The translations under genes were made by a program, and so were the position numbers. The notes below the pieces were generated by a model that saw nothing but the letters and a program-made list of their open reading frames with translations, ran no database searches and was not told the DNA's origin. A stretch of 64,000 nt of DNA. Source: a virus. Taxonomy: Duplodnaviria > Caudoviricetes. The stretch spans positions 1,898-65,897 of the IMG/VR virus record IMGVR_UViG_3300023081_000014. One strand, written 5' to 3'. Positions 7,001 to 54,387 of the stretch are shown piece by piece. The first letter of the stretch is position 1. Each line of letters begins with the position of its first letter.

Positions 7001-7558
7001 CAACCAGAAGAACCAACTTCGGAACAACTTAGAAGTCAGTTTGAACCAGCATTGGAAAAAGTTAAATCAATCAGTGATACGTTAATTTTTCATACTGTAA
7101 AATATAGAGAATTATTTGGAGCAAATGCTGATACAGATTTACAATCACAATTTAAAATTGTAAGATCAAAACAAAGTACAGTTAGTGATAATCAATTGAA
7201 GTCGGGTGTGATATCCGCAATAAATGAATTCTTTGATATTCAAAATTGGGATTTTGGTGATACATTCTTCTTTACAGAATTAGCAACGTATGTTCATAAT
7301 CAAATGGCGCCGGATTTAGCAAATATTGTTATTGTTCCTCGTAGCAATAGTCAAGCATTTGGATCCTTGTTCCAAATAACAAGCAAATCAGATGAGATTT
7401 TTATTAGCAGTGCTACAGTAGATAACGTTGAAATTATAGATAGTTTAACAGCCGCAAATTTACAAGCATCTGGTAATGTTGTAAGTAGCGTCGATCAAGT
7501 AGGTACAGTTTCCGTTACTTCAACTAGCACTTCAAGTAGCGGAGGTAGTACTTACTAA
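4094..7558 (+). CDS. Baseplate wedge protein, T4 gp6-like
   Basis: DF..YDFPTIRRTMINYLR...YNDYIESSEYLALIDVIAFLGQSLSYRVDLNARENFIETA; SVENIKRNAP..YYTQNRMVTGEDY; follows gp25. Confidence 0.85.
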   Translation: MASYDRQNSLLLTEDWSKIYRSFTDADFTAYDFPTIRRTMINYLRKNYPEDYNDYIESSEYLALIDVIAFLGQSLSYRVDLNARENFIETAEKKESVLRLARLVGYNNKRNECASGILKVTGVQTTENLTDSTGTPLRNRFITWNDDSNANWLEQTLTIMNNAFSGSTVYGKPNASEVIGGIQTDLYKLNSNNTDIPVYSFDKTINGTQTTFDIVSSRIDSTSIYEETPLPANTFGLLYRNDKKGNSSENTGFFVNFKQGTLVTSLFTINDPSNNEIINLNTPNINNSDVWLWELDQFGNFANEWTKLDSVLGSNAIYNSVANSNRKIYTVVSRDLDQVSLNFADGNFGDLPNGNFRTYYRISNGLTYTIRPADMQNVVVEIGYTSKTGQENTLTLQCALQTTVTNASATESVENIKRNAPQAYYTQNRMVTGEDYNTFPLTSSPQIVKAKAVNRASSGISRQFEIKDPTGKYSSTNIIADDGIIYKNDFEVDFAFTFSSRNDVLGVLRNRIEPIIAGIATKSFYYDKFPRVNTTGLNIDWVKSTNTTGGVTGYFRNTVNGAPITVGSFTGNNFKFIATDAMIKFVPPSGRYFLPNGELTTTKTKTTRDYIWVKVLNVVGDGSNGGLGALDDGTGPIILSEVITSLAIPSEIIPNIVTDLPSDIETEIVDLVFNYKNFGIRYDQSTLTWKIVTNANVNTIDPFSLDREGDISGTKADKSWFVLFETDGETYTVTYRGLDYRFESEDLVQFYVDARGKTYDPKTGLVIKDQVKILKVNEDPILDTILTKDYPWEITGTIRNADGFEETNRVEVNLYDSDDDGMIDDPDSFINIVAPESTDSRGYRDKFVFFQNTVVDNITVAKKVSATNFVIFDNESSIPALSDYTNGQLFYFYGSTENVVKSYNSTTGSLDLENSYFAKPGRDGIKFQYVHNAENDRRLDPSKTNIIDLYILTEAYDDSYRYYIKNGGTQPEEPTSEQLRSQFEPALEKVKSISDTLIFHTVKYRELFGANADTDLQSQFKIVRSKQSTVSDNQLKSGVISAINEFFDIQNWDFGDTFFFTELATYVHNQMAPDLANIVIVPRSNSQAFGSLFQITSKSDEIFISSATVDNVEIIDSLTAANLQASGNVVSSVDQVGTVSVTSTSTSSSGGSTY

Positions 7559-19500: not shown

Positions 19501-21504
19501 AACAGTATAAAGCGTAATTACGGATTTGACCTTTATCCTGGCACACAAGACAGTGTCTTTGTATCAGTCGCGGGTGTTTATTTAGAAAATGGCATTGATT
19601 ATACAATTGATTATCAGAACAAAGAAATTGATTTTGTTGATGCTCCGGAAATCGGTGAACTTGTAACAATACAAACCTTAAATGTTGGTGGTGCAAATAT
19701 TCTTGAAAGACAAAGATTTGTAAATGATGATTCAACTACAACATTTAGATTAACAGCAAATTACGATGATGTAAAAAGTGCGTTTGTTACTGTTAACGGT
19801 GTAAGACAAGATTATCAAATTTTAGAAGATGCTGATACAGGAAGTGCTGAAATACTGTTAACTAATCCGCCAGATGCTATTTCATCAGGATCTATTATTG
19901 AAATTACTGCACTTAGTACAAGCGAAAAAACATATAGTGAGATTATTAAAGAATCTATAACCGATGACGGTAGCACTATGTCTTATAGACTTACAAATAT
20001 TCCTGGAAATATTGCTCCTTATCATAATATGGTAATTGCAGAAGTAAAAGATTTAGACACAGGAACCATTACTAGACTGTTACCACCAGACACTGTTTAC
20101 TATGTAAGCAACGGTGTAACACAAAGTTATACGGTAAGTCAAGATCCAGAGTATCCTACATTCTTCCTAGCATTGGGTGAGATTGAAGTTCACCTAAACG
20201 GAATTAAATTGGTACCAATTAGAGACTTTAACTTTGACACACAAACAAACTTGGTAACATTTAACCAGAATGTTTTAAATTCAGGCGATGCTATTGCTAT
20301 CACAATACTTAGAAATCATGAATATGAAGTAAGTGTAACAGGTGATAGTGCCGGAGATACTGAAGCAAATCTTGTTATACTAAAAAATAGAGCAGAGTTA
20401 CCAACTAATACAGAGTATCAAGTAACAACGTTTACAAATCATGATGCTAATTTGATTAGAAAAGAAGTGTATACAGGAAAACTTGGTGGGACTTATACGT
20501 TAAGTCGTCCTGCTATCGATTCTAATTATATTTGGGTTGAAATTGACGGAACACCTATAGTAGCAGAAAGAGATTATAAGGTATTAGACAACAATACAAC
20601 TGTTGAAATTGATGATAAGTTTACTGTTACGCCAAGTTCAAGGGTTGTTATCACAACTTTCAGCGAAGAAATAAGTTATGATTCAATTGGCTATAGAATT
20701 TTCAACGACATGTTACACAGATCTCATTACAAACGTATTAGTGATCAAGATTCGACAAAACTTGCCGTTGCACTTAAAAATACCGATAAGAAAATTTCAT
20801 TAACTGATGCAAGTTTCTTGCAAACACCAAGTCCAGAAAACAAAGTGCCAGGTGTTATCTGGATTGATAGAGAAAGAATTGAATTCTACAAAATTAACGG
20901 TAATGATTTAGAACAAATTGTAAGAGGAACACTTGGAACTGGAGTTAAAGAAACTTACGCAGTAGGAACAAAAGTGTTTGATGCTGGACCAAGTCAAACT
21001 GTTCCTTACATTGAAACCGTAAATGTTTACGAAGGTGTAATTAGAGACGGATTACCCAACGGTACCAAAGAGCATGTACTTGAAACTATTAATATAAGTT
21101 CTAGTGCAGAAGCACATGACCAAGTAGAAGTGTACCTAGGCGGTAGAAAACTACAAAAACCAACTGTTTCAACCAATCCAATTAAGATACATGATGTTGA
21201 AATTGCATTTGATAGTAACGAAACTAATAGCACAGGTGTTGAAAGTGATGTATTGCAAACACCGGAGTTTACTATCGAAGCAGTGGGCGATTCAAGTGGT
21301 AAAAACTACTATAAATTAGTACTTAGAGATGAGCCTCAACTAGGTTTAGAACTAAAAGTAATACAAAAACAGGGCAGAGTATGGCACGAGCAAGGCGTTA
21401 ATACAGCGTCAACAGGCACCACATTGCAACGTGCGGAAACTGCACAGGCTAAGTTCTTGCTGGAGAGACCCAGTGGCTTACCTGTAATAAATATTAGGGA
21501 ATAA
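7558..21504 (+). CDS. Giant multidomain virion/baseplate protein (4648 aa) with cupredoxin-like, CBM-like, FG-GAP propeller, YHYH and Ig-like modules
   Basis: Single 13.9-kb ORF coupled to gp6 by TAATG. Motifs: GHPF...YYTCGVHQEMQG; repeated FGxxxA...LxVGAPG; GVYHYHSDP; GxGYxxxPxxxxxGG modules; repeated VxxNG...DY...F...P modules. Confidence 0.8.
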   Translation: MAYSDNSNTPVNATNKDKYRNSSALLPMFFRTEANKKFLGSTLDPLISKGQLERINGFVGSRYSKTVTPEDRYVPEPTSNRRRYNLLPSVVIRDDFDDRTEWLATYDDLINQLNYFNSNTDNHDKLFSSKYYAWNPHIDFDKISNYRQYYWLPQGPSPVTITGLAEGTVSAFTVTNQNSDAWVFTPDGSSANPIIKLFRGATYKFEVNAPGHPFYIKLAKTTGALDQYEEGITNNGTENGAVVFTIPKGAPDILYYTCGVHQEMQGIFEIKNAEDELNINIPTEILGKSEYTSSNGVKFTNGLKVNFDGNVTPSTYKNKNFYVEGVGDKIKLLPVSEFDTPEGYGQNFDYEFDIDAFDETPYDDAESSPETPEYVTINRASIDKNPWTRYNRWFHKEVIEQTAKYNNTTVVLDETQRAKRPIIEFLPNIQLHNFAVEGLGNIDLIDTVTTDVFSDVEGQIGYYVDQIDLTAGMRVSFNADPDITVKGKIYEVQFVEHGGKSRLHLEEVDVPVQGQGVVVTKGVSNKGTSWYFNGTQWIKAQQKTTINQAPLFDLYDQQGVSFADSTYGIENFKGNELVSYKQGSGANDPILGFPIEYQNVNNIGDIVFEFDWDDSTFVYTNNNQNILQDTASGSIKINKSLTESVFESGWSLVDEKTRQEIVQLNDTIAETPFIEVTAIQDPGLYIGAENIVVQVNGDVLKPTTGFTTRRSDNSKQLFIDFVQAIPTNSRIITKILTDRLPTDFGFYEPPVNLTNNSENNDLKTFTLGSITDHVNTIFTNDKRVQGKFNLTSNARDIKDLYKKGNRYVKHQGSLLPAMFGLIDSETNVIKAIRKNSVDYNIFKQRFIETFEQVEISGLPRDDVDDILYKLSLNSNVNSPYYYSDMAGYGKTLTKLEYEVTTFEQQVFGIQSNFNLTEISNRSIYVYYNGEHLINDVDYEFDLTDNTVILKRDTSIGDKVVVYEYETVGNAIPSTPTKLGLYPKYTPKIYVDNTYVTPTKVIQGHDGSKTVAYNDYRDDILLELEKRIYNNIKVEYKRNVFDNNEFRPGAFRKTEFNYDQYIDILRDDFGYWANFYEIDYLTNTTSVEGDVFSYNLDNTSDTINNESLPGYWRQIYKQFFDTDRPHTDPWEMIGYSEKPSWWEDRYGPAPYTNGNKILWNDLEKGFDFGTGKENLIYARPGLSKILPVNEYGELLSPIEANMVAGFISTNLNNDWVFGDGGPSEYAWRSSSWYPFAEQIALALLKPANYLTTQFDTSQNIVSPSGNTVYKSTGKIVDFTDIKIHNLYYNDIRYFGSGYHVCVVDYLKDKGQNVKTGYYDRLSNTSMNLTYKTGAFVNKERLRILLESSNPNSPDKSVFLPQENYEITFRKSNPVFTAKMSGIIVEKTDNGYLVKGYDKYQPVFKIFKPILSERDSAEVVGGTTAKFVLWQENKFYGIGQIVQYEDSYFRVKEDHTSGTTFDQSKYTRLAELPLTGGTSVQKPRRFEETVTEIPYNIVLPNVQEVYNLIIGYEKYLESIGFVFDERVNELGELSNWSFSGKEFLYWTTQAWGKGSIITLSPFAQKVKFQYGTGQVDNVLDTFYEYTIYTAGGSPLPRANISTVRGEGLFSLSTKDTEQGIYNIQLNLIQKEHVVVLDDKTIFGDIVYDQEAGYRQERIKLIGFKTTDWDGDLFSPGFVYDEAKISPWQQFRDYNLGDVVKYKTKYYSAKSFLPGVETFNYSDWIYLENEPKAELLPNLDFKISNFQDFYNLDTETFDVTTSELSQHLIGYQKRFYLDNLIQDNVSQYKFYQGFIKEKGTANAIDKISRLKVDDVQTDVTYDEEWAFKVGSLGSTSTVKEIDFTLDETLNVDNPQAYDFVSSVTTNSTPGNNIQLLANKIAVKPADYDNNPWPVTTLSATDGITSTYINKLPVAGYPRLDDIPTTAFSYNDLVGSSIINQLDDGDIIWVAKDKSKDWNVYQLKAIPARVVQTDDLKTDFLDGKITLNTDIDHNLVQGQLISVKNFNDDVDNVYLVDEVLSTTRFKVIGNDTSATLEDSAGGTILEFLSLRVTNPDDINDLKNVSKITTGTLVFADDDGTGKWAVYQKIDAFIEQKWSGPNPIVGQQFGYNIASADNGRLIVVAAPGFGDEGQIYVLGREFNTGIGTLQTTQGFAISDNSSDNIVSDAGRPALGTSLALSNDGSVLAAGAPTASNFKAVDDSSYKDNFRVSIGDFTAIPSDFSREGVVTLHTYDTEDNLFKRNYVIGCSEPETDAFFGTSLLVSNTKLLVGAPGKTAHQGKVYIYDKTTLADGSTVDWNISDHHILSISNSRDGDRFGTSMTGTKDLSLIAVSAPGYELQSDDSSASKGAVFVYRLHNNEYQLLQTISSATFDQIDAGDQFGYAVSMSENGNTLIISAPFEDAGNINAGAVFYFKKTGDDSSQDLYTYQQTIFSPLKELEEKFGSNISVNPAGDGFAVWSEHGRNVLSTSFDKYTRLEDSSLEETTLETTFDANSLKLVDENYASGTVFTYSLLNTKFVFGQKVNSETLKSFDAFGQGMNYTNNSLLIGAPNHDQYGTGALGALWSFQKVKTGGWNKLRVQEDPVDPYSVKKTFTYNTATNRVKDFLETVDPAKGKIPYLAEAEISYKSDVDPASYTQGDNSVTVRPTTAWTEEHVGELWWDLSTVAYVWYEQGDTEYRKTNWGTLFPGSSVDVYEWVETDLLPSEWEELSGTVEGTSLGFSGTPKYGDDIYVTKNIYNRNTSGFETRYYYWVKNKITTPDVANRKLPAVEVANIIEDPQAYGIKSIQLLSKNAISISNVKTTLDDLNINLNIQYRNVETDIPEHNEWQLIGEKQTKKIENELLVKKLIDSLVGYDSQGNPVPDPALPATRKYGLQIRPRQSIFADRLKALKTIITYCNDVMGKTRVVDTKNIQPLFEKDPEPGSGTGKWDVRVDDFAEISQIGTQDLVTATATATLVNGRVTKVTVNNQGYGYVNAPEITLTGDGSGAKLKANIDSRGRVTSIDVLKKGTNYSYLNLEIRPFKVLVAVDETANNNWSLYEWVSSVNNWTRTNTQTYNLNRFWSYKDYVVDGFTVDEIINHKITAPYELNTITPELGELVQIDNAGDGNKMILRKVIADGTFSDDYDLMYKAKSTIQINTNIYNYQELNFGFAGLENYDVNLFDSEPITETRKILETIRDNIFVDDLKANWNELFFIAIRHVFSEQSFVDWAFKSSFINITNNLGTLSRKLNYKISDPGYIESYVKEVKPYKTVIRNFINNYESLENVNAGTTDFDLPSYWDEENKKFVAVKITDDKISEQPYINWFDNYKFSIGRIDVTDEGAGYTEPPIVVISGGRTNKPTITQTSQFRPLVTTDYTDTRFFVKTTSIPDHGFLRNPGVNTVTAQDFTFEITRTPVEAIDKVATPLGEIGVAVNGVVFYNPKAALSEVRNGVEYELNAVENHEELGIDDGSGHPQENGVYHYHSDPRLMYTKDENNHSPLLGYALDGYPIYGPYGWDTPTGRSNPRVMQSSYRLKTTPRADGSDPDGRYIEDFEYVAGLGDLDQHNGRTCNTPEYPDGTYAYFITVDPADVDKAVYPYIIGPTYYGAPILPNGNKTLPGDAVVDATAVAYTSRGIVREIIVTNPGSGYASAPTVTLAGGGGEDAVTKSALAYAILENKKVRINTVNMAFDRLSSKKIIQTQTQTDTFTATSGQVKFKLTYLPTLDKREIDININNETVYIENYQVSIVTAKDATYKKKEGYIIFNTPPGANANVSITYKKSIDLMQATDRIDYYYQPTAGMLGKDPAQLMTGVEYDGVQVQGLEFDISVGWDGLPWFSHGWDTFSGTNTDYAFRADGTTTTFTLPYTPESGQEINVYFDNVRQDPTNTPTIVGDGNTDTFTLGVAALDGTLVVFRQKESDGSLVPTDVNNLDAIIQGGNFSYSTATGTRPEDISIDGDGFVTPDTSHAPEEVVPGQVFDSLSMQIYNSPADGSPLIVTNRYFGNSIKRNYGFDLYPGTQDSVFVSVAGVYLENGIDYTIDYQNKEIDFVDAPEIGELVTIQTLNVGGANILERQRFVNDDSTTTFRLTANYDDVKSAFVTVNGVRQDYQILEDADTGSAEILLTNPPDAISSGSIIEITALSTSEKTYSEIIKESITDDGSTMSYRLTNIPGNIAPYHNMVIAEVKDLDTGTITRLLPPDTVYYVSNGVTQSYTVSQDPEYPTFFLALGEIEVHLNGIKLVPIRDFNFDTQTNLVTFNQNVLNSGDAIAITILRNHEYEVSVTGDSAGDTEANLVILKNRAELPTNTEYQVTTFTNHDANLIRKEVYTGKLGGTYTLSRPAIDSNYIWVEIDGTPIVAERDYKVLDNNTTVEIDDKFTVTPSSRVVITTFSEEISYDSIGYRIFNDMLHRSHYKRISDQDSTKLAVALKNTDKKISLTDASFLQTPSPENKVPGVIWIDRERIEFYKINGNDLEQIVRGTLGTGVKETYAVGTKVFDAGPSQTVPYIETVNVYEGVIRDGLPNGTKEHVLETINISSSAEAHDQVEVYLGGRKLQKPTVSTNPIKIHDVEIAFDSNETNSTGVESDVLQTPEFTIEAVGDSSGKNYYKLVLRDEPQLGLELKVIQKQGRVWHEQGVNTASTGTTLQRAETAQAKFLLERPSGLPVINIRE
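21488..21493 (+). promoter_or_regulatory. T4-late-like promoter core TAAATA
   Basis: taaTAAATAttagggaataaccaATG, with an AGGGA SD before 21508. Confidence 0.45.
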
Positions 21505-41294: not shown

Positions 41295-42188
41295 TTAAGT
41301 CCCCCAAGCGTTGCCGAAGATGTCGACGTGTAGTCGGGGTGTATACCTCCAGCCTCGCTCCATTGCCAATGTTGCGACTCCTCTTGTGTTGAGGCTGTAT
41401 TCTTCTGAACGACCCCCAAGCGGCATAACATAGACTGGAACATCGATTCCTTCTGCTCTGTACTGTTCAACTGCTCTTGTAACTTCATCCACATCTTCTT
41501 CGGTAGCCACAACAAACTTGAAATACATACTACTATTAGGTACATCGTAATACTGCCTAGCAATATCAGGCTTGATAGCAGTATCCCAAGGCTCTCCTGA
41601 TACGGAAAGTTTTGGACTGCACGACCAAGTGATGTGAAATGCTCTTTCGTTGTTGAGCCACTCTCGGAAATCATCTCTAAGAGTTTGTGTTGTATTTGTT
41701 TCAAATGTAACATTTTTTAAGTCTCCCATGCCAGGGTGTTCGAATAGATCCATGTAAAGACGTTGCCACCCTAGCAGGGGCTCTCCGCCTGTGAGTATAA
41801 AATGAACATCTTGTCCATTGTCCATTGTCCACTTATTTTGTGGAGTAAGACTTAACACATAGTCAACAACTTCGTCAACTGTGTGGTCTTTCATATACTT
41901 CTTAAATTCTGGATAGATACTCGCATATGTATCACAACCTGTGTGTACAATAGGCAAATCCTCAAATCTATTTACCTTGTCTAAAATACCATCATCAAGT
42001 AATTGTTTTACTTCAGGATTATACTTGATGCCTTGTTCTAATTTTTCTGCTCTGTTTGGATGCTTGTCCAAACCAAAATTCATACAACGAAAGTTACAGC
42101 CAAATGTACGTAAAAATACACTAGGCACGCCTACAAAACGTCCTTCACCTTGTACACTATAAAATGCTTCACTATATCTAAGTTTCAT
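41295..42188 (-). CDS. queE: 7-carboxy-7-deazaguanine synthase (radical SAM), non-canonical cluster motif
   Basis: YSEAFYSVQGEG.FVG.PSVFLRTFGCNFRC...GCDTY; LTGGEPLL; TFETNTT; SCSPKLS; PRLHV.IFG. Confidence 0.88.
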   Translation of the reverse strand: MKLRYSEAFYSVQGEGRFVGVPSVFLRTFGCNFRCMNFGLDKHPNRAEKLEQGIKYNPEVKQLLDDGILDKVNRFEDLPIVHTGCDTYASIYPEFKKYMKDHTVDEVVDYVLSLTPQNKWTMDNGQDVHFILTGGEPLLGWQRLYMDLFEHPGMGDLKNVTFETNTTQTLRDDFREWLNNERAFHITWSCSPKLSVSGEPWDTAIKPDIARQYYDVPNSSMYFKFVVATEEDVDEVTRAVEQYRAEGIDVPVYVMPLGGRSEEYSLNTRGVATLAMERGWRYTPRLHVDIFGNAWGT

Positions 42189-43983: not shown

Positions 43984-44540
43984 TAGTATAGTGCCTCGAT
44001 CTTATCACAGATTTTTAGTTTCTTTGCTTCTTCCGCACTTAACCAAACGTCTTGCGGTGGAAGAAGAATTTCTTTGATTTTAGCCTCAGTCATTCCTAAG
44101 CATTTTTTATAATGATTAATCATACGTTCTGTGCTTAGTTCAAACTCTTTAACACGAGCATATAGTTCGTGTTCTTTACCTCTGCTACCCCAACTGTATT
44201 GATGTGATAATATGCTAGTGTTTGGTGTAAGGATACGTTTACCTTTTGTACCCGCAATAAAGATTAAAAACCCACAACTAGCAATTAATCCTAGTCCTAC
44301 AGTCTTAATAGGTATACTGCTTGATTTCATTACATCTATTAATGCAAAAGCGGCATGTACATCGCCGCCTGGTGAGTTAATTACTATTGTTAATTGTGGT
44401 AATGGGTTATCACTTAAATTATGATTCATTACCCATTTAATTGCTTCCTTACAACTAGCATATGTTATTTGATCCATCAAAAGATAGACGCCATTTGCTT
44501 CTATATTCTGTGGCTGTTGTTGTTCTTGTTTTTTAGCCAT
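43983..44540 (-). CDS. clpP: ClpP-like serine protease subunit
   Basis: INSPGGDV.AAFALID...TVGLGLIASCG..IFIAG.KGKR...NTSILSHQ...WLSAEEA. Confidence 0.85.
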   Translation of the reverse strand: MAKKQEQQQPQNIEANGVYLLMDQITYASCKEAIKWVMNHNLSDNPLPQLTIVINSPGGDVHAAFALIDVMKSSSIPIKTVGLGLIASCGFLIFIAGTKGKRILTPNTSILSHQYSWGSRGKEHELYARVKEFELSTERMINHYKKCLGMTEAKIKEILLPPQDVWLSAEEAKKLKICDKIEALY

Positions 44541-45027
44541 AATGTCCTACATTCTCCCAGGGATATACTAACCATACATCTTCCTCGGCTTTGTTTACTT
44601 CATCGCAAGAGTATGATACACCGTCAAACTCACTGCTTAAATTTTCTGTTAATACCGCAAAGCGAACATTGTTACCCCAAATATCGTCTGACAAGTTATA
44701 AACACTTGATTGCCAATCTTGTTTAATCCAATTAAATGTAGCACCAGTGTCGTTAATATCATCTACGATAAGAATTTTCTTACCTGCTTGAGCATCTTCA
44801 CTCATCCAGCAGTTTGTTTCACTTTCGCTGTTGTCATCACGTAGACTAACTTTAAGTGCTTCACAACGAATGCCTGTCATGTTACTAATAATAGTAGCAG
44901 GAACATTGCCACCTCGTGTAATACCTACAATGTAATCAGGCTTCCAGTTGTCTTTGTACATTTGATTAACAACGCTAGTACACATTGTTTCCACGTCTTG
45001 CCAACTGTAAAATTTCTTTTTGATCAT
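44533..45027 (-). CDS. Purine phosphoribosyltransferase (Gpt/XGPRT-like)
   Basis: IVGITRGG.VPA; PRPP loop ILIVDDINDTGAT; terminal WLVYPWE. Confidence 0.85.
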   Translation of the reverse strand: MIKKKFYSWQDVETMCTSVVNQMYKDNWKPDYIVGITRGGNVPATIISNMTGIRCEALKVSLRDDNSESETNCWMSEDAQAGKKILIVDDINDTGATFNWIKQDWQSSVYNLSDDIWGNNVRFAVLTENLSSEFDGVSYSCDEVNKAEEDVWLVYPWENVGHYG

Positions 45028-45523: not shown

Positions 45524-46030
45524 TCACGCATCGTCCTTTGCACCCCTTGCGAGGTATTGTTCGTTGTGGATCCATCTGTAGCCTTCGTGCTTGACATGAT
45601 CCATGAAACCCCATTCTTTAACTTTTTTGCCCATGAAGAACAAACTCCAACAAGGTATTTCATTTCCGTCCTCATCTTTCTCTAATTCTAGCCAGTGTAA
45701 ATCATCTGCGTTACGAATACGGAAGTGTCCTGGCCCACGCCATACTCTAGTGCTACCTACCACATTACCTTCTTTGCTTTTTAAAGGAATCCATTCCCAG
45801 TAACCGCCTTTAAGTATTAGGGTTGCATAACCCCATGGATGATCATGTAGTGTAGGTTCGTCACTTACTAAAACTTTGTGTAATGTAATATTAAAAGGAA
45901 AGTGTTTTCTATTTTTAAGGAATAGATAATAACGTATTAGATAGGGAACATCGCTATCACGTTCTGTGATAACTCTGCGTCTACCCAATTTATCCATTAC
46001 TTTTGCAAAAATATTCAACTTATTCTCCAT
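45524..46030 (-). CDS. Cupin-fold metalloprotein (HDHPW family)
   Basis: LHKVLVSDEPTLHDHPW..ATLILKGGYWE...HWLEL...WSLF. Confidence 0.65.
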   Translation of the reverse strand: MENKLNIFAKVMDKLGRRRVITERDSDVPYLIRYYLFLKNRKHFPFNITLHKVLVSDEPTLHDHPWGYATLILKGGYWEWIPLKSKEGNVVGSTRVWRGPGHFRIRNADDLHWLELEKDEDGNEIPCWSLFFMGKKVKEWGFMDHVKHEGYRWIHNEQYLARGAKDDA

Positions 46031-46980: not shown

Positions 46981-47637
46981 TTAACCTCGTTGTGTGTCAG
47001 CGAGTTTGTTCTTCAAGTAGTTTAGAAGAACACCGTATGCTGGTAGGAACACAATTAGACCAACCACAATCTTGGTTAGTGTATTGTTCTGTGCAACAAT
47101 GTGCCAGTTCTCACCAATCCAAGTTAGTTTGCCTTCTGCGTCTGTTGAACCTGCGAATGCCACATAAAAGAATGAATATGTGTCAATGATGTTTGCGACA
47201 ATAGTTGAAATCGCTGGTGCCGCCCACCATGCAGTTGAACGTTCACGGATTGCTTGGAAAACATATACATCAAGCATTGTGCCGATAGCATATGCTGTAC
47301 CACTTGCAAAACCTACTCTATATGCGTGTTCATCACCCAGTGCTAGTAATACTAGTACCGAAGCGATAATAGCAGGAATAATAGCCATTGCTACAACGGC
47401 TCTACCTGCTTCTTTACCAACCATACGTACTGTAAGGTCGGTTGCTACTACAACAATCGGAAATGTAAATGCCGCGGCGGCTAGTGGAAACGAGCCAAAC
47501 AATGGCAAGTCCGCGCCAGGGAATAATTCAAATCTAATTGTGACTAGATAATTCGACACAGCAATAACCAACGTGTGTAGAATAACTAGATTTCTGACAA
47601 GTGCCTTATCGACACCTGCTAAAAGTTTATTGAACAT
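46981..47637 (-). CDS. yhhQ: Queuosine precursor (preQ0/preQ1) transporter, YhhQ/Vut_1 family
   Basis: Multi-TM; VIAVSNYLV, AFTFP.....TDLTVRMVG, ASGTAYAIG..LDVYVF, STIVANIIDT..F...AF. Confidence 0.88.
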   Translation of the reverse strand: MFNKLLAGVDKALVRNLVILHTLVIAVSNYLVTIRFELFPGADLPLFGSFPLAAAAFTFPIVVVATDLTVRMVGKEAGRAVVAMAIIPAIIASVLVLLALGDEHAYRVGFASGTAYAIGTMLDVYVFQAIRERSTAWWAAPAISTIVANIIDTYSFFYVAFAGSTDAEGKLTWIGENWHIVAQNNTLTKIVVGLIVFLPAYGVLLNYLKNKLADTQRG

Positions 47638-47651
47638 TTGTCCTCCTTTTA

Positions 47652-48338
47652 TTATCTTGGCGCAAATTCTTGCTGGAGTTTGATGTTATCCATAAACTCT
47701 TTTTTAGTTCCAGCATCGTCTTTGAACGCCCCCTTTAACACAGTGGTCTGTGTCAAACTTGAATGTGCCATGATACCTCGGTTCTCACAGCATCCGTGTG
47801 TTGCTTGAATGTACACACCTAAATGTTTTGAATCTGTTGCTTTGCTAATTTCTCTTGCAATGTCATTAGCAAGTTCTTCTTGTAGTGTACCACGTCTAGC
47901 ACACCATTGTGCAATACGTGTATATTTAGAAAGTCCAATAACTTTACCATTTGGAATAATACCAATATATGCTACGCCTGTTACTGGCTGGTGGTGATGC
48001 GAACAAACACTTTTTAGTTCACTTCGCACAACTAACATACCTGTATAAGCATCTTCACCTTCATTTGGAAAAGCAGTAGCATTAGGAATACGATCATAAC
48101 GTCCTTGCATTAGTTCATTGTAATACATTTTAGCAAGACGTTTAGCAGTACCATGACTGTTAGGATCTGTTGCTCTATCAATAATAAGTGCGTCTAACAC
48201 ACCTTCAAATTTTTCTGCGGCTTCTTCGATTAGTTTTTCTTTTTCGCCAGCATATATAAATTCGCTAATATTATCACCCGCCCAAAAACGCTTGTTAGCA
48301 TCTTTGATTCTGCGTGTTACTTCTTCATACTTTTTCAT
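47652..48338 (-). CDS. folE: GTP cyclohydrolase I
   Basis: SVCSHHHQPVTG.AYIG..PNGKVIGLSKY.RI...RR..LQE; HGCCENRG. Confidence 0.95.
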   Translation of the reverse strand: MKKYEEVTRRIKDANKRFWAGDNISEFIYAGEKEKLIEEAAEKFEGVLDALIIDRATDPNSHGTAKRLAKMYYNELMQGRYDRIPNATAFPNEGEDAYTGMLVVRSELKSVCSHHHQPVTGVAYIGIIPNGKVIGLSKYTRIAQWCARRGTLQEELANDIAREISKATDSKHLGVYIQATHGCCENRGIMAHSSLTQTTVLKGAFKDDAGTKKEFMDNIKLQQEFAPR

Positions 48339-48353
48339 TTTTTCTCTCCGATG

Positions 48354-49478
48354 TTAAGGCAGTGGATTGCCATTGTCTAATTGTAACTTCTCAAGTAAAT
48401 TAGTGCAACTAAAATAATTGTCATTTAGATGAGTAGTAAGTTTATTTAGGTCAACAAGATAGTTTTCATAATTTTCCATATAGTCAATTATGCGTTCAAC
48501 TACCTTGTCTTTGTGTTCTTTGTATGCGTTAAAAGATTCTGTCCATTCACTTGGATACAAAAACTTACCTGTGTTCTCCATTTCAGTATAACTTAATCTA
48601 TCTGGAACCATAGGTAATGTTCCTACAACTGCACCTTCATACCAACTAATACCAAGTGTTTCTTGTAGGTTAGCACTAAAGATAAGTTTTGCTTCTCCTA
48701 GTGCATTATAGTATTCTTTCTTTGTATAGTTCTTTTCCATACAAATTTCAAATTCATATTGTGGTAAACTTTCTTTTAGATCACGGAATATTTCTGGTTG
48801 TTTCTCTGGAGCAACACGATGCGGAAATAATATAAGATTACGCTTTTGCATATTCTTGTATGGTTCTAGTTCTAGTCGCTCATACTCCATAGGCCATCCG
48901 CAACGTACAATCTTGCCATTGCTATAACGTTCATTCCACATTTCATCATACCACGGATTTTCTTCTTTAAGTCCGTCGTTAAGTAATTCGTCAAAGAACA
49001 GTTTTACATGAAACTCTGTAGCAAAGTAATTGTGATCATAACTGTGAAAGAAACTTTTTTCAGCATTTCTAACCCATGGTGCATTACCTATAAGTCTACC
49101 TAAAAAGTCCTGTGGATCATATGAACCTGCATGCCAAAGTGCGTGTGTTGTTACCTTAATGCCTAGCAGTTCACTCATATACTTGATGTTAATAATACCA
49201 GGATGCCAAGCATCAGTAAAGATAACATGATCACCACTTTGAACTTTGCCTGTAGTAAATGCTCTACTAATTTGCTCTACTTGACTTGCTTTGTAGATAT
49301 TAGTACCACCAAAGTTTAAGAAAGCACCTGGTGTAGTTGCCGCTGGAATATCAGTTGGCCCTTCAATAACAAATACTTCGTGGCCTTTCTTGCGTAGTAA
49401 TGCTGGAAAATAAGTTTTCCATTCTTTAGTGTAGCGTGTTTCTACACTTTCTAAATCTATTAACCAAATTCTAGCCAT
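48354..49478 (-). CDS. GT-B (GT4-like) glycosyltransferase
   Basis: C-terminal LFPHRVAPEKQPE...IFSANLQETLGISWYEG...PMVPDRLSY matches the R..K / E-x7-E pattern of retaining GT4 enzymes. Confidence 0.78.
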   Translation of the reverse strand: MARIWLIDLESVETRYTKEWKTYFPALLRKKGHEVFVIEGPTDIPAATTPGAFLNFGGTNIYKASQVEQISRAFTTGKVQSGDHVIFTDAWHPGIINIKYMSELLGIKVTTHALWHAGSYDPQDFLGRLIGNAPWVRNAEKSFFHSYDHNYFATEFHVKLFFDELLNDGLKEENPWYDEMWNERYSNGKIVRCGWPMEYERLELEPYKNMQKRNLILFPHRVAPEKQPEIFRDLKESLPQYEFEICMEKNYTKKEYYNALGEAKLIFSANLQETLGISWYEGAVVGTLPMVPDRLSYTEMENTGKFLYPSEWTESFNAYKEHKDKVVERIIDYMENYENYLVDLNKLTTHLNDNYFSCTNLLEKLQLDNGNPLP

Positions 49479-49713
49479 TTTTATTTGCCAACCCTAGTAA
49501 TGTTAAAATTCTAATATCATCATATTTTATTATTATAGCATCATCCATGTTGTCATTCCAACCTTGATCATCCCAAATAAAGTCACGTCCGTAGACGTAG
49601 CCGTGAATGCCAAGCATATTACATACTTTGCCAACTGCGTCTACGGTCGTGTAGTTCGCATTTAAAGCACCACCTTCAACTGAATTGCCATAAGCATCAG
49701 TTTGGTAAGGCAT
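49471..49713 (-). CDS. Small hypothetical protein (start revised to MPYQTD)
   Basis: C-terminal part of the 49471..49896 track ORF; the ATG at 49713 abuts the upstream gene's stop. Confidence 0.55.
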   Translation of the reverse strand: MPYQTDAYGNSVEGGALNANYTTVDAVGKVCNMLGIHGYVYGRDFIWDDQGWNDNMDDAIIIKYDDIRILTLLGLANKNG

Positions 49714-49714
49714 C

Positions 49715-49948
49715 CTAGTGCTGTGTTCTGCGATTTTTAAAGCCACGGTTCTTTTGAACACGGTTCTTTGCCTTCCTAGGATTGCCACGATTTTCGTAGG
49801 CTCTCCATTCTCTACATTTCTTATCGTAGAGATACTTCTCATTAAACACAAATCCTTCAAAGCGACAAAAATCGCGGAAAGATTCCAAGTCATCAAAGAT
49901 TTTTACAATCTCTGGATGTTTTGCAAAATATGACTCAGTCACCGTCAT
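49715..49948 (-). CDS. Small hypothetical protein
   Basis: AGGAG SD; IFDDLESFRDFCRFEG..FNEK.LY. Confidence 0.7.
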   Translation of the reverse strand: MTVTESYFAKHPEIVKIFDDLESFRDFCRFEGFVFNEKYLYDKKCREWRAYENRGNPRKAKNRVQKNRGFKNRRTQH

Positions 49949-49953
49949 CTCCT

Positions 49954-50379
49954 TTAGTATTTTGCGTACTCGATATGGGCACCGTTCTCGCCATCTTCAC
50001 TGACGTCAATATGAACTTCTCTGCCCGGGTGTTTTTCGCTGATTTTTTCGTATAGATCATCAGCCATCATTTCACAACTTTTATAATCTAGTTCAAGGGT
50101 CTTCTCCTCATAAAGTTTTTCTAACCATCTTTTGAATTGGATAAACTCGATATCTCTGTCGTTGTGTGTTACAGTGATGCCGACTTTGAAATGGAATATG
50201 TGTCTGTGGGGATAACCCAAAAACGAAACATCATATTCATCTCCTGTTGCAAGATTGGGATCTTCCAATGCCGCAGGATACTTGTGGATACCTTCCTTGC
50301 GAAAAGTAACCCAAATCATACGCTTTGCTGTTCTCATAATCTTTTCATGTCTTTCTATGTTAGCCTGTTCTTTTAACAT
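49954..50379 (-). CDS. QueD/PTPS-like T-fold protein, DpdL-like (predicted CDG decarboxylase)
   Basis: T-fold pattern FRKEGIHKY...LGYPHRHIF...IEFIQFKRWL...SCEMMA...VSEDGENGA. Lacks the QueD catalytic Cys before HxH and matches LxxxHRHxF. Start uncertain: frame open to 50463, a promoter lies at 50398-50426. Confidence 0.75.
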   Translation of the reverse strand: MLKEQANIERHEKIMRTAKRMIWVTFRKEGIHKYPAALEDPNLATGDEYDVSFLGYPHRHIFHFKVGITVTHNDRDIEFIQFKRWLEKLYEEKTLELDYKSCEMMADDLYEKISEKHPGREVHIDVSEDGENGAHIEYAKY

Positions 50380-50397
50380 TTGTTCTGTTATACCCAT

Positions 50398-50426
50398 AGT
50401 ATAGTGCCTTTCTTGATCTTTGTCAA
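50398..50426 (-). promoter_or_regulatory. Sigma70-type promoter of the T-fold/GT/folE/yhhQ operon
   Basis: TTGACA-17 nt-TATACT. Confidence 0.7.
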
Positions 50427-51661
50427 TTGTTTTTCCAATTAGTTTGGTTCCAAATTTTACCATTATTAATAAGTGTTACAAACTTTTTGAATACGTTTTT
50501 AATGTAATCTGTTTCAATATTATTTAGGTCGTAAAAACTTAAAAACCAAATTCTAGTATGTTCTGGATTCCACAGTTTATGACTGTTTAAAAAGGTAGAT
50601 AATACCTTGCAGTCGTTGTTCTTAAACTCTGAAAAATCACAGTATAGTATGCTATGATTGTGAGTTACCTTAAATTTTTCTACTTGACGTAAAATATCTG
50701 CTAATTCGTTTATAAATGGTGTAACTTCGTTTATAACTTTATTACCAATATCTTCGTTTACACACTTGTTAATTGTTTCTATTGTTGCTCTAGCACCAAC
50801 ATTGCTTTGGCTTCTTGTATTACCAACTGCAATCGGAAAATTATCCCACATGCTTGTATCGTATGCACTAATAACATCGTGAACGTTATTCTTAATAACC
50901 GTAATTGCAAATGATGCAAACCCTCCCGTAAGTGCTTTACCAAAGCAGATAATATCAGGATCTATACCTTTGCTTATGCTATGAGAAAAATGTCCTATTC
51001 TCCACATACCAGTTAATACTTCGTCGACAATAAGCAAGCAACCCGTTTCTTCTCGTGCTTTTTGAATTTTTTCTAAAACACCATCACTAATTTCACTGAT
51101 ACCTTTGTACCAATTAACAGTATCAATTAAGATACCAGCAAGATCGTTTTTGTGTCTTTGGTATACAGCATCAAAGTCTTCGTCAAAGAAATCAACAAAG
51201 TTTACAGCCGGCCAATCTTTAATCCATTCTTGGTCGTCGGTCATTTGCCAACCAGTAATACTTCCTGAATGAAAACTGCCTTTTCTTACAAGTATCGTAT
51301 GTTTGGGTTTTAGTTTTTTAGTCCAATATCTCCAAGAAAGTTTTAGTGCGTTATCGACACTATCACTGCCTGTAAGTGCAGGAACAAAACCTGAATAAGT
51401 TTCGGGTAATACTTTTTTAAGAGTATCTTCAAGTTCGTACCAAACACTGCTTTTTGTTGTCCAGTCATCGTTAGCAAATTTAAAACTAGTTTCTGCAACT
51501 TTTGCCTGAATATCTGTTTGTGTAAAACCAAATATGTTGCAACCAGTACCTCCACTCATATCATACCATTGTCCGTGTTCACCTATTAAAAAATGCCCGG
51601 ACATTTCCTTGATATGTGTATGTTCGTCTTTAGGTTGCGAAAAAGGATGTATTAATTTCAT
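50423..51661 (-). CDS. Class III PLP-dependent aminotransferase (start revised to MKLIHP)
   Basis: DMSGG; GSDSVDNALKL; SFHSG; LLIVDEVLTGMWRIG; PDIICFGKALTGG (PLP Lys); ATGA overlap with the upstream gene. Confidence 0.88.
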   Translation of the reverse strand: MKLIHPFSQPKDEHTHIKEMSGHFLIGEHGQWYDMSGGTGCNIFGFTQTDIQAKVAETSFKFANDDWTTKSSVWYELEDTLKKVLPETYSGFVPALTGSDSVDNALKLSWRYWTKKLKPKHTILVRKGSFHSGSITGWQMTDDQEWIKDWPAVNFVDFFDEDFDAVYQRHKNDLAGILIDTVNWYKGISEISDGVLEKIQKAREETGCLLIVDEVLTGMWRIGHFSHSISKGIDPDIICFGKALTGGFASFAITVIKNNVHDVISAYDTSMWDNFPIAVGNTRSQSNVGARATIETINKCVNEDIGNKVINEVTPFINELADILRQVEKFKVTHNHSILYCDFSEFKNNDCKVLSTFLNSHKLWNPEHTRIWFLSFYDLNNIETDYIKNVFKKFVTLINNGKIWNQTNWKNN

Positions 51662-52215
51662 ACTATTACTTCTTTTAATAATTCTATTGCAATATCCCAA
51701 TGAATAAATTCTTCTTTATCAATAAACGAAGGAACAATACACAATGTCCATCTACCTTCATCTGTTGGGTTATAGGTACTGTGTAATCTACCTACATTTA
51801 GCAAACTAGGTTTGTTAATTACTTGTTGATAAGTCATGTTGCAATGATGTTCATCAGCAACTAAAATATCTGCTCCGTATTCTGTTCCACCGTTTTTTAA
51901 AAACTTTTCGTCTTTAACACTCCACCAGCGGGTATAACTATTTTCATCCCCCCAAGTAAAGTTAATTTTTACATGGTCATCAAATTTAGGACTATCACAG
52001 TGTATAAAAATTTTATCATTTGGTGCTGTAAAAAATGCTTCTGTATGCATAGATTTTAGTCCTAAACTTTTTAACCATTCTCTTACTTTTACAGGAACAA
52101 ATTTTTCCTTTAATTCAATATGTTGGATTTTGTCAGGATCCTTTTTAAAAATCAAAGGCTTATCTACTTCAAACGGTAGATTTAGATATCTATGATACTT
52201 CTGATGGACTGTCAT
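51658..52215 (-). CDS. 2OG-Fe(II) oxygenase-like / cupin protein
   Basis: IFIHCD (HxD) ... NVGRLHS (distal His) ... RWTLC. Confidence 0.55.
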   Translation of the reverse strand: MTVHQKYHRYLNLPFEVDKPLIFKKDPDKIQHIELKEKFVPVKVREWLKSLGLKSMHTEAFFTAPNDKIFIHCDSPKFDDHVKINFTWGDENSYTRWWSVKDEKFLKNGGTEYGADILVADEHHCNMTYQQVINKPSLLNVGRLHSTYNPTDEGRWTLCIVPSFIDKEEFIHWDIAIELLKEVIV

Positions 52216-52717
52216 TTTCGTACTTTGACCAATCTGTAAATTTATTCCTATCTAACAAGTCGTGTACTTGATGTATCCAAACTCCGGGATTAGAATGTTT
52301 AAAGTCGGCGTCATCTATCTTGATACAAGCATTATAACCGAGTTGGTTAACATACGGAAGTTTTACACTTATCATAGGAATAAAATTATGTCTTTCAGTC
52401 ATTCCTGTTTCAAGGATCCATTCATGATATTTTACATCATAATCTAGTGTAACCAAATATTGTGTTCCTAATTCGGATTTAGCATCAAGCAATCCTAATA
52501 CTAGATCTTCCCAATCTTCTTTGGGTACAAAACTATGGTTCGCACCAAGATAGATATGATCTACATGTTTCTCTTTTGCTTTTTCAAGAACTTCCTCTAA
52601 TGGCCGACAGCCTACCACAAACAGTGTGTCCATATCATATGCTGGAGTTTTTTCTACTTCATAACCTGTGAAGTATATAACATCATCCTTTACACCATCT
52701 GCGTAATCACGCTTCAT
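52190..52717 (-). CDS. Hypothetical protein linked to the transglycosylase (start revised to MKRDY)
   Basis: GGAGG SD before 52717; GYEVEKTPAY..TLFVVG...HIYLGANHSF...KIDD.DF..SNPGVW.H. Confidence 0.7.
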   Translation of the reverse strand: MKRDYADGVKDDVIYFTGYEVEKTPAYDMDTLFVVGCRPLEEVLEKAKEKHVDHIYLGANHSFVPKEDWEDLVLGLLDAKSELGTQYLVTLDYDVKYHEWILETGMTERHNFIPMISVKLPYVNQLGYNACIKIDDADFKHSNPGVWIHQVHDLLDRNKFTDWSKYENDSPSEVS

Positions 52718-52923: not shown

Positions 52924-54387
52924 CTATACCTCCTCAAATAGGTTTGCATATTGCGTACTAGCATTTACTGTTTTCTTGCCAGTAGCACCTCTAGTGCCAA
53001 TAATTGACATCCAGAATCTTGAAAATTCTTCTATGACCGCTTCGGCTTCATCTCTGTTGTCTGTTGCAAATATTGCTTCCACAACATCTCTAAAAAATAC
53101 CCTGTCAAAGGACTCCTCAACAAGCATTCCTGGAACAACTTTGTTGTCGTATTGCCTGTTTGCTTCTTGCACTGCATTAATGTGACTCCATACGTTATGC
53201 CCCATTTGTATAGCATATGAAAAACTATCCCACGAGGTCTTTCCTTCTTTGCCTATTTTATTTAGGTCGCCCGGAGCATAGATACAAATATCTTTTGCTT
53301 GAAGGTTTTGTGTAATCGGACTGTCCAAGAAACTTCCATGTTTTCCTTCACGTACAAATGCTTGTCCAAATGATGTTGTGTCAGTTGCCAATGCTTTGTC
53401 GTCAATGCTAGGTACCATTCTGTATACCCATTTACTTCTGTCTTGTGTTTCAAGTTCGCAATAGATTTGACCATTTGCTGTTGCTAGGAACGGACTAGCA
53501 CAGTCAAATGTAATCGTAAAGTTTTCATTGTGATACTTGCGAACTGCTCTTTGAATATCTGTAAGCAGAGTTGCCCACTCTAGTTTACTTGTACCCAAGA
53601 AGTGCATAAAGTCATGCTTACCTTTTTCTAACAAGCCATCAAAGCGTAATGCTACCATTCTTTTAAGAACAAGATGCACATCACACATATTCTGACCACC
53701 CATCGACCACCCATTAAAGTGTGTGTCTGGATATTTTTTAGGATCACAATAGTCCTTCATCTGCTGATACCAATCTTCTGCATCAGCATGATTTTCACCT
53801 TGCAATACGTTTAAGAATTTACAACTACCATTTCTATTCTTCATAAAGTAGTCGTTGTTAATGCGTGTGGCATTTACTGCTTCTTGATATGTGCTAATAC
53901 CTGTTGCTTTTACACCTGCAGGCGAACGTGCCACCCAAGCCGGAATATCAAGAATCATTCCATAGTCCATATAAGCGTCCATCCACGCAAGAACTTGCTC
54001 ACGTTTCTTTTTAGCCTTAGGACAATTAGGATCTTTCCAATCACCTTCCCATACGCCTTTACCAATTTGGAATCCACCCGAGTCACCTAGTAGCCAACTG
54101 TTTTCGCGATCACGTTCACGAATCATAAGTTCTTTAGGTGCGTCTTTATTGATATCTAGTTCAGCATGTCCTGCCGAATACAAACTCCAATGATAATTGA
54201 ATAGTCCGTCTTTCTTGTTAAACCAATTAAGACCTTCCATCTCGTTGTTAGGAAAAGGAATACGACTTTTGTCTACATACTCTTCTCTACGTTGTTTGCC
54301 GATGAAAGTCGCATAGAAACCACTGATCGCTGGCAAAAATATAGCGTAGTCTTTTTGTTCTTTTGTTAGATCAGTGTTCAATGTCAT
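52924..54387 (-). CDS. dpdA: tRNA-guanine-transglycosylase-like protein, probable DNA deazaguanine transglycosylase
   Basis: TGT barrel motifs in order: GDSGGFQ, ILDIP, NVLQG, GWSMGG, HFLG (His, as in archaeal TGT/DpdA), FDCASP, HN; clustered with folE and queE. Confidence 0.78.
   Translation of the reverse strand: MTLNTDLTKEQKDYAIFLPAISGFYATFIGKQRREEYVDKSRIPFPNNEMEGLNWFNKKDGLFNYHWSLYSAGHAELDINKDAPKELMIRERDRENSWLLGDSGGFQIGKGVWEGDWKDPNCPKAKKKREQVLAWMDAYMDYGMILDIPAWVARSPAGVKATGISTYQEAVNATRINNDYFMKNRNGSCKFLNVLQGENHADAEDWYQQMKDYCDPKKYPDTHFNGWSMGGQNMCDVHLVLKRMVALRFDGLLEKGKHDFMHFLGTSKLEWATLLTDIQRAVRKYHNENFTITFDCASPFLATANGQIYCELETQDRSKWVYRMVPSIDDKALATDTTSFGQAFVREGKHGSFLDSPITQNLQAKDICIYAPGDLNKIGKEGKTSWDSFSYAIQMGHNVWSHINAVQEANRQYDNKVVPGMLVEESFDRVFFRDVVEAIFATDNRDEAEAVIEEFSRFWMSIIGTRGATGKKTVNASTQYANLFEEV

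Follow-up and report, generated by a model that had tools for sequence, protein, structure and literature searches.

What would a phage do with a glycosyltransferase encoded among its genes for 7-deazaguanine? The question is raised by a stretch of 64,000 nucleotides from a virus of the Caudoviricetes (IMG/VR record IMGVR_UViG_3300023081_000014, positions 1,898 to 65,897), hereafter the window, in which an open reading frame (ORF) at 48354-49478 on the minus strand encodes the glycosyltransferase (GT) in question. An earlier note, made from the sequence alone, had placed this gene in a deazaguanine operon and suggested as its acceptor a deazaguanine substituent in DNA or the precursor base. 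The current analysis places the gene in a 7-deazaguanine DNA-modification module and assigns its product to a GT4-like family, new and so far without annotation, that is dedicated to deazaguanine systems of the DpdA3 type, DpdA3 being a DNA-guanine transglycosylase. We read the GT as an active, nucleoside diphosphate (NDP)-sugar-dependent, retaining-type accessory enzyme of the DpdA3 system that would decorate 7-deazaguanine with a sugar, likely in DNA, and give this reading about an even chance.

Fold and donor-site motifs of the glycosyltransferase

The ORF is real: it starts with ATG, encodes 374 residues (P0001), and the N-terminus of its product aligns with those of the homologues. Direct searches with P0001 gave no useful match in PHROGs, NCBIfam, the PDB (by phmmer) or Pfam, the last with the threshold relaxed to E≤10; hmmscan against the whole of Pfam at E≤10 returned two unrelated weak matches only. 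Among 60 homologues, however, PF00534 (Glycos_transf_1) matches 33 (best E-value 1.3e-8) and PF13439 (Glyco_transf_4) matches one, the query itself matching neither.

The AlphaFold2 model built from a 60-sequence alignment (pLDDT 95.5, pTM 0.92) has a GT-B fold made of two Rossmann-like domains. Using this model, Foldseek retrieved with probability 1.0, at about 11% identity, the retaining GT4 enzymes BshA, MshA, PimA, PglA and WaaG and the GT5 glycogen synthase, and VIA, a search independent of Foldseek, gave Z-scores of 20-26 for the GT4/GT5 group over 300-325 aligned residues. Further top neighbours are sucrose-phosphate synthase and LmbT. VIA also scored the pterin glucosyltransferase BGluT (5zer; Z 20.3), the DNA arabinosyltransferase HY126 (19.2) and the T4 alpha-glucosyltransferase (AGT; 18.3). 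The comparison with T4 AGT had been proposed in the earlier note to look for a DNA-binding cleft. The GT-B fold is shared, but the structure search does not separate a DNA acceptor from a small-molecule one, since all GT-B matches fall at Z 17-26. Net charge was dropped as a test of DNA binding: the GT family is acidic (median isoelectric point, pI, 5.7), but so are T4 AGT (pI 6.1) and DpdA3 (pI 5.4-5.7).

A diphosphate-binding pair of arginine and lysine (GRxxxxKG-like) and an E-x7-E motif are hallmarks of GT4 enzymes. Both are found in the C-terminal domain of the GT, as FPHR221VAPEK226 (R-x4-K) and QE273TLGISWYE281 (E-x7-E). Over the 60 sequences, conservation of the donor-site residues R221, K226 and E273 is 96-98%, and E281, Q66, E140 and E299 do not vary at all; together with H116, the four motif residues are 96-100% conserved across homologues of 28-90% identity. 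Judged by these residues, the GT looks catalytically intact. It resembles the GT4 enzymes listed above in its two-Rossmann GT-B fold, its donor motifs and a conserved histidine in the N-domain, and differs from them in that the query falls under every Pfam and NCBIfam threshold, in having LEPIETRYT where a glycine-rich b1-a1 loop is expected, and in its context, which is DNA modification rather than cell-envelope or thiol biosynthesis. The fold of the model, the conserved motifs and the PF00534 matches of the homologues bear out the GT4-like label of the earlier note; the assignment concerns fold and motifs, and is reached by modelled structure and not by direct sequence search.

Genomic linkage to DpdA3-like transglycosylases

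In the window the GT gene is surrounded by genes for DpdL, a DpdA3-like protein, FolE, Vut_1/YhhQ and a QueE-like protein (Table 1), and the label 'deazaguanine operon' is therefore correct. Its reported position between a T-fold gene and folE/yhhQ holds as well: the T-fold gene, dpdL, lies upstream, FolE starts 15 nt past the GT stop, and the Vut_1/YhhQ gene comes next. The T-fold protein carries LGYPHRHIF, an instance of LxxxHRHxF, the signature defined for DpdL, a predicted decarboxylase of 7-carboxy-7-deazaguanine (CDG) (Cui, Hutinet et al.; PMC10516641). The L, H, H and F of the motif are invariant in eight lineages including phage phiST, and the window protein, the true start of which is probably at 50379, is homologous to the phiST gene product encoded next to MazG (33% identity, 3e-8) and also matches phrog_17812. 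The DpdA3-like protein P0274 carries DSGGFQ, the catalytic motif of tRNA-guanine transglycosylases (TGTs), and its D102, S103, G104, G105 and Q107 are invariant across seven lineages. A profile of these lineages matched only TGT chains in the PDB, weakly (best E 0.016) and with the catalytic motif aligned. The Pfam TGT model has no match anywhere in the contig; DpdA3 detection is reported to have needed HHpred (PMC10516641). P0274 is 36% identical to EST35_0316 of phage PA5oct, whose gene lies directly upstream of EST35_0317, the PA5oct GT homologue.

The linkage of the GT to dpd genes is strongly supported. Gene content was counted over 86 related loci, and flanks were tallied over 125 loci with a GT homologue. 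DpdA-like and/or DpdL genes occur in the fetched flanks of 119 of the 125, and the other six are all cut less than 2 kb from the GT. Where at least 4 kb is available on both sides, close viral loci have DpdL within 4 kb in 38 of 39 cases and DpdA in 37 of 39; for bacterial assemblies the corresponding counts are 12 of 22 and 22 of 22. The linkage is seen in about ten different gene orders, and the GT and DpdA3 ORFs often overlap or abut. DpdL is present in all 17 phage records with a close GT homologue. The synteny with dpd genes, on which the earlier note had let its reading depend, thus extends to distant relatives.

Cultured phages carry homologues of 23-49% identity inside deazaguanine clusters. 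The order is DpdA3-GT-DpdL...QueE in PA5oct and ten relatives, QueD-x-FolE-x-DpdA-GT-DpdL-QueE in Acidovorax phage ACP17, FolE...GT-DpdA-DpdL-QueE in Xanthomonas phages X1 and BUDD, GT-DpdA-x-QueE in Burkholderia phage BCSR5, and DpdL-GT-x-FolE in Sinorhizobium phage Phosso, where a QueE-like gene follows after about 3 kb. An IMG/VR lineage of 28-30% identity has FolE-PolB-DpdL-GT...DpdA3. Phosso is the one case in which GT and DpdA3 lie apart: its DpdA3-like gene (PV764938.1, 323228-324655) is about 170 kb from DpdL-GT-FolE. Two members of the IMG/VR lineage, both jumbo-phage contigs, hold two GT paralogues each in their deazaguanine cluster (L087, 1584-2630 and 10001-11065; L088, 4802-5758 and 10001-11065). 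Such divergent pairs fit a sugar-decorating role and could reflect a disaccharide or two different linkages.

Among genome assemblies of bacteria and archaea, a scan yielded 36 GT loci, namely eight jumbo-phage-like contigs in metagenome-assembled genomes (MAGs) and 28 loci mostly from Alphaproteobacteria (Methylobacterium, Aurantimonas, Pelagibacterium, Ochrobactrum, Azospirillum, Shimia, Sulfitobacter, Thalassobius and six Magnetospirillum assemblies). In loci of the alphaproteobacterial type the GT lies no more than about 2 kb from a DpdA3-like gene and often directly adjoins DpdL. The Methylobacterium locus is a prophage, as its genes for a capsid, VapE, endonuclease I and a serine recombinase show; that of Magnetospirillum is a mobile island, which holds an integrase fragment together with genes for a CoiA-like nuclease, a HEPN protein and QueD. 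A 201-residue, weakly YhhQ/Vut_1-like membrane protein (p201) is usually encoded next to the alphaproteobacterial GT; its identity with a 175-residue protein of the window was rejected (E 2.2).

Two side observations concern these assemblies. The six Magnetospirillum assemblies (L114, L116-L120) have in common a GT-DpdL-DpdA3 core with further genes after it; in L118 (Magnetospirillum aberrantis, 8330-15371) and L119 the CoiA-like nuclease gene precedes the core and QueD follows it, and L118 also has HEPN and the integrase fragment nearby. Instead of a prophage, this locus may be an island for modification and restriction that belongs to the cell. Module-bearing jumbo-phage contigs were also met in MAGs labelled Neomarinimicrobiota, Legionellales, Methanobacteriota and Pacearchaeota (L093, L096, L097, L098), placements that probably reflect viral contamination of bins and not host assignment.

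Which gene of the module is the constant partner? DpdL was rejected as an obligatory one, because, of five whole alphaproteobacterial genomes with the GT and DpdA3-like pair, four gave no match to a DpdL profile. DpdL being dispensable there, the constant partner is the DpdA3-like transglycosylase, and neither DpdL nor FolE. Conversely, the GT profile, which finds the PA5oct copy at 7e-127, finds no copy in the complete genomes of the DpdL-carrying phages phiST, RHph_I1_18, Ahp1_CNU-2021 and D479; the GT is therefore not a general gene of the replication module.

The only GT relatives without DpdA or DpdL are those of the Xanthomonas phage PhiXhv-12 group. They share residues 78-309 and not the N-terminal stretch of about 75 residues, which is specific to the dpd-linked clade and carries E10, R15, Y16, W20, F53, T59, K63 and Q66. 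This subdomain is likely the acceptor-recognition part of the dpd-linked clade. In PhiXhv-12 and relatives (L086, 7669-10903), the homologue of the GT core lies beside genes for a GlmS-like amidotransferase and a PIG-L/BshB-like deacetylase; these phages are not among the DpdA3 or DpdL matches of our phage-collection searches, and their locus may serve a different (amino)sugar modification pathway.

The family is large. An exhaustive search gave 1147 protein clusters at 50% identity, of which 231 have E≤1e-30; with a word-indexed search the number at 90% identity exceeds 8000. Relatives are encoded on at least 588 stretches in IMG/VR, and the viral share of related ESM Atlas clusters is 95-100%. 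A quick tree shows about ten deep clades on an unresolved backbone.

The acceptor and the order of steps

From these observations we infer the activity of the GT, its donor, its acceptor and the order of the steps, as follows. FolE, QueD and QueE, of phage or host, would make CDG; DpdL, where present, would trim it to 7-deazaguanine; the DpdA3-like transglycosylase would swap this base for guanine in DNA; and the GT would then attach the sugar, most likely once the deazaguanine is in place. The glycosylated base may further shield the genome from nucleases. TGT-type pockets read the 2-amino group of the base. For this reason, and because all characterised sugar modifications of phage DNA are added on the polymer, action on DNA after base insertion is favoured, by analogy and with about half of our confidence. 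Since DpdL is dispensable, attachment at a feature common to all 7-deazaguanines is more likely than at a C7 side chain. Candidate positions are the exocyclic N2, as in huimycin, and the pyrrole ring. A C-glycoside on an electron-rich pyrrole carbon is conceivable; we know of no precedent for C-glycosylation among GT4 enzymes.

How does this proposal compare with known systems? The module shares DpdA3, DpdL, FolE and QueE with phage Dpd systems (DpdA1-4, DpdL, DpdM, DpdN), whose known end products (dDG, the deoxynucleoside of 7-deazaguanine, and dCDG, dPreQ0, dPreQ1, dADG, mdPreQ1 and fdPreQ1) are sugar-free (PMC10516641). DNA of PA5oct shows an enzyme-resistance pattern that points to a modified G, and the phage is targeted by END nucleases, which sense hypermodified bases (PMC12191111). 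ACP17 supplied the dpdA and dpdL with which Cui, Hutinet et al. (2023) attempted a reconstitution in E. coli; no dDG was formed, the authors noted that other enzymes may be required, and the word 'glycosyl' has no occurrence in the text (PMC10516641). In ACP17, the GT homologue sits between the 424-residue ASD50403, taken here as dpdA, and ASD50405, the dpdL homologue. No description of a glycosylated deazaguanine in DNA was found in the literature searched, in agreement with the earlier note.

The closest chemical parallel comes from secondary metabolism. HuiG (KALB_4073) moves N-acetylglucosamine (GlcNAc) from UDP-GlcNAc onto a nitrogen of the 7-deazaguanine scaffold of huimycin, clusters of this family are annotated with PF13439 glycosyltransferases, and dapiramicin likewise bears a disaccharide (bioRxiv 10.64898/2026.04.15.718813). 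Compared by function only, the two enzymes are alike in that the glycosyltransferase gene adjoins FolE, QueD and QueE, HuiG having a 7-deazaguanine-type base as its acceptor. They differ in that HuiG acts on free O6-methylated preQ0 in an actinomycete cluster without a transglycosylase, whereas the GT is tied to phage DpdA3. With the T4 alpha-glucosyltransferase (GT72), the T4 beta-glucosyltransferase (GT63) and the 5-hydroxycytosine arabinosyltransferase HY126, the GT shares the GT-B fold and a location in the replication and early region, and those enzymes decorate a non-canonical base made by adjoining genes, as is proposed for the GT. Their acceptors, however, are hydroxyls of pyrimidines, and no purine or deazapurine acceptor in DNA was found in the literature searched. 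A third parallel is offered by the vertebrate enzymes QTMAN and QTGAL, by which queuosine in tRNA receives mannose and galactose, respectively (PMC12518689). As proposed for the GT, they put a sugar onto a 7-deazaguanine derivative that is already in nucleic acid; unlike in the phage case, the acceptor is a cyclopentenediol hydroxyl, which the phage pathways considered here, having no QueC, QueF or QueA, cannot make. QTMAN (GTDC1) is a GT4-type enzyme. Its N-terminal domain DUF3524 (PF12038), which we take to be the GTDC1 marker, gave no match in the GT (hmmscan, whole Pfam, E≤10).

Several points weigh against a sugar added to 7-deazaguanine in DNA. An O-nucleophile is not evident in plain 7-deazaguanine; the sugar would therefore need an N- or C-glycosidic bond, or attachment through some further substituent. 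The structural neighbours of the GT are mostly small-molecule GT4s (Z 22-26), which score above T4 AGT (18.3) and HY126 (19.2), and an hhalign comparison with T4 a-gt gave a probability of 1.2% over 21 columns around E-x7-E only, that is, no profile homology to GT72. As for a role in insertion, phiST DNA carries plain dDG (PMC10516641); since phiST reaches it without the GT, synthesis and insertion of 7-deazaguanine can do without this enzyme. Nor is the failure of the ACP17 reconstitution specific to the GT, because that of phiST dpdA and dpdL failed likewise (PMC10516641), and phiST has no GT.

One alternative is the free base as acceptor. The GT could glycosylate free CDG, 7-deazaguanine or preQ0, either for insertion of the sugared base by DpdA3 or to give a storage, export or decoy form that withholds the precursor from the host tRNA-TGT. 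HuiG sets an example, its acceptor being a free deazapurine base, BshA, sucrose-phosphate synthase, LmbT and BGluT are all small-molecule GT4s, and a YhhQ-like transporter gene often adjoins the GT, in the window and, as the weakly Vut_1-like p201, in alphaproteobacteria. Yet a TGT pocket that reads the 2-amino group should not insert an N2-glycoside, a C7-linked sugar clashes with the frequent presence of DpdL, the predicted remover of the C7 carboxyl, and every characterised phage DNA sugar goes on at the polymer stage. We regard this explanation as unlikely, though worth keeping in view. Still less probable, in our judgement, is a GT that does not decorate the base at all and serves DpdA3 as a structural or DNA-handling partner, as DpdB does for bacterial DpdA, or glycosylates protein. 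Such a partnership would account for the GT being linked most strictly to DpdA3, with ORFs that often overlap or abut, and for the finding that DpdA3 alone was not reconstituted in E. coli (PMC10516641). Against it, the conservation of the donor-site residues (96-100%) argues for retained catalysis, and phiST DpdA3 fully replaces G (PMC10516641) in a phage without the GT.

An acceptor unrelated to deazaguanine, for example a pterin by-product of FolE and the T-fold enzyme (as for BGluT), a different DNA base or a polymer on the host surface, with the linkage due merely to a shared replication module, is the explanation we find most doubtful. It can point to the pterin glucosyltransferase among the structural neighbours (5zer, Z 20.3) and to the PhiXhv-12 relatives, whose genes adjoin GlmS and a deacetylase, not dpd genes. 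The linkage holds, however, across about ten gene orders, and also in those prophages and islands in which neither FolE nor a polymerase, and hardly any QueE, came up by tblastn with the phage proteins, though QueD-like genes do occur in some of them; moreover, no pathway for hydroxymethyl-pyrimidines is conserved with the GT over the 86 loci. Having weighed these explanations, we retain the decoration of 7-deazaguanine, likely within DNA, as our reading of the GT.

The surrounding module and its meaning

The source contig is an IMG/VR viral record of 65.9 kb, of which the window spans 64 kb. Its CheckV completeness of about 19% marks it as a fragment of a jumbo phage. The replication and nucleotide-metabolism module is a minus-strand block at about 39-58 kb of the window, with genes for a family-B DNA polymerase, a clamp-like protein, a flap endonuclease, ClpP, a HIT protein and an HhH-GPD glycosylase. 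One ORF of 4648 residues (7558-21504, +), in the half of the window that is coded on the plus strand, is presumably for a giant structural or injected protein.

Table 1. Features of the window at and around the glycosyltransferase gene
Feature	Position	Strand	Basis
GT4-like GT-B glycosyltransferase (P0001, 374 aa)	48354..49478	-	AlphaFold2, Foldseek, VIA, motifs, PF00534 matches of homologues
DpdL, QueD-like T-fold protein, predicted CDG decarboxylase	49954..50463	-	LGYPHRHIF motif, phrog_17812, phiST homology
DpdA3-like DNA-guanine transglycosylase (P0274, 487 aa)	52924..54387	-	DSGGFQ motif, TGT profile match
GTP cyclohydrolase I (FolE)	47652..48338	-	PF01227, 1.7e-40
YhhQ/Vut_1 queuosine-precursor transporter-like membrane protein	46981..47637	-	PF02592, 2.9e-20
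QueE-like radical-SAM 7-carboxy-7-deazaguanine synthase	41295..42188	-	NCBIfam QueE models at N-terminus, 1e-9
Conserved 175-aa protein, between DpdA3 and DpdL	52190..52717	-	72/86 loci
Xanthine/guanine phosphoribosyltransferase-like protein	44533..45027	-	PF00156; NF006613, 4.3e-15
Cupin-like protein (HDHPW motif), accessory gene of the window's clade	45524..46030	-	phrog_4786
Small lineage-specific ORF between DpdL and GT (141 aa, TTG start)	49471..49896	-	Homologue in 3/86 loci
Class III aminotransferase, lineage-specific, outside the conserved module	50423..51700	-	PF00202, 1.6e-28
Sigma-70-like promoter consensus upstream of DpdL	50398..50426	-	TTGACA-17-TATACT, 11/12 matches; consensus match only

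The earlier note had one transcript apparently run through the GT gene from the promoter upstream of dpdL. The promoter-like site is there, as a match to the consensus, but the stretch from DpdL to the GT holds another such site (49561-49532) and a weak hairpin (49599-49584), and co-transcription of the GT from the first site is therefore no more than possible.

The window QueE-like protein is homologous to PA5oct EST35_0322 and to the QueE of X1. FolE and QueE are thus present, and neither PTPS/QueD nor QueC was found in the 65.9-kb contig, which covers about 19% of the genome. The YhhQ/Vut_1 gene of the window recurs in only 3 of the 86 loci. The 175-residue protein is far more widespread: besides the loci counted in Table 1 it is found in ACP17 (ASD50402), and its family has more than 4800 clusters without annotation. 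Its model (pLDDT 77.6) gave no clear fold match, the best being STAS-like at Z 7.8. The phosphoribosyltransferase-like gene occurs at 53 of the 86 loci and also in PA5oct. Its product could recycle guanine released by DpdA to GMP and GTP for FolE. Alternatively, by analogy with the phosphoribosyltransferases of tubercidin and toyocamycin clusters, which make a deazaguanine nucleotide, it could do the same here.

Other neighbours are more local. The cupin-like gene is present at 68 of the 86 loci and has no copy in the flanks of PA5oct, ACP17 or Phosso; the small ORF between DpdL and the GT has no family match; and the class III aminotransferase is found at one of the 86 loci. Together with a gene for 185 residues, the aminotransferase gene is inserted between the DpdA3 side and DpdL (50423-52215, -), each of the two recurring in at most one of the 86 relatives; this insertion is a lineage-specific addition that might alter the base or the sugar further. 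The cupin, aminotransferase, TauD-like and methyltransferase genes of the window were rejected as parts of the mechanism, as they are not conserved with the GT beyond its own clade.

To our knowledge, the sugar-bearing bases found in DNA so far are all pyrimidines, namely glucosyl- and arabinosyl-hydroxymethylcytosine, glycosylated 5-hydroxycytosine and base J. The linkage of dpd genes and GT in more than 100 phages and prophages suggests a sugar-bearing form of 7-deazaguanine in DNA that has escaped description. If it exists, such a sugar would add a chemical class to the known genome modifications. It would also be the first sugar, perhaps N- or C-linked, that any genome carries on a purine-type base. 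It would also explain the 'modified G' of PA5oct-like jumbo phages, which are studied for therapy, and the GT could be the missing component of the failed DpdA3/DpdL reconstitutions and, if the reading is true, an additional tool for the site-directed glycosylation of DNA. The cultured phages PA5oct, ACP17, Phosso and X1 allow a direct test.

We put at a little under even the chance that a large and environmentally abundant group of phages and prophages, with PA5oct and several thousand metagenomic protein clusters among them, carries glycosylated 7-deazaguanine by means of the GT and DpdA3. Given how common the GT family is, its product would matter for the evasion of restriction, CRISPR and END nucleases, and for sequencing artefacts in environmental viromes.

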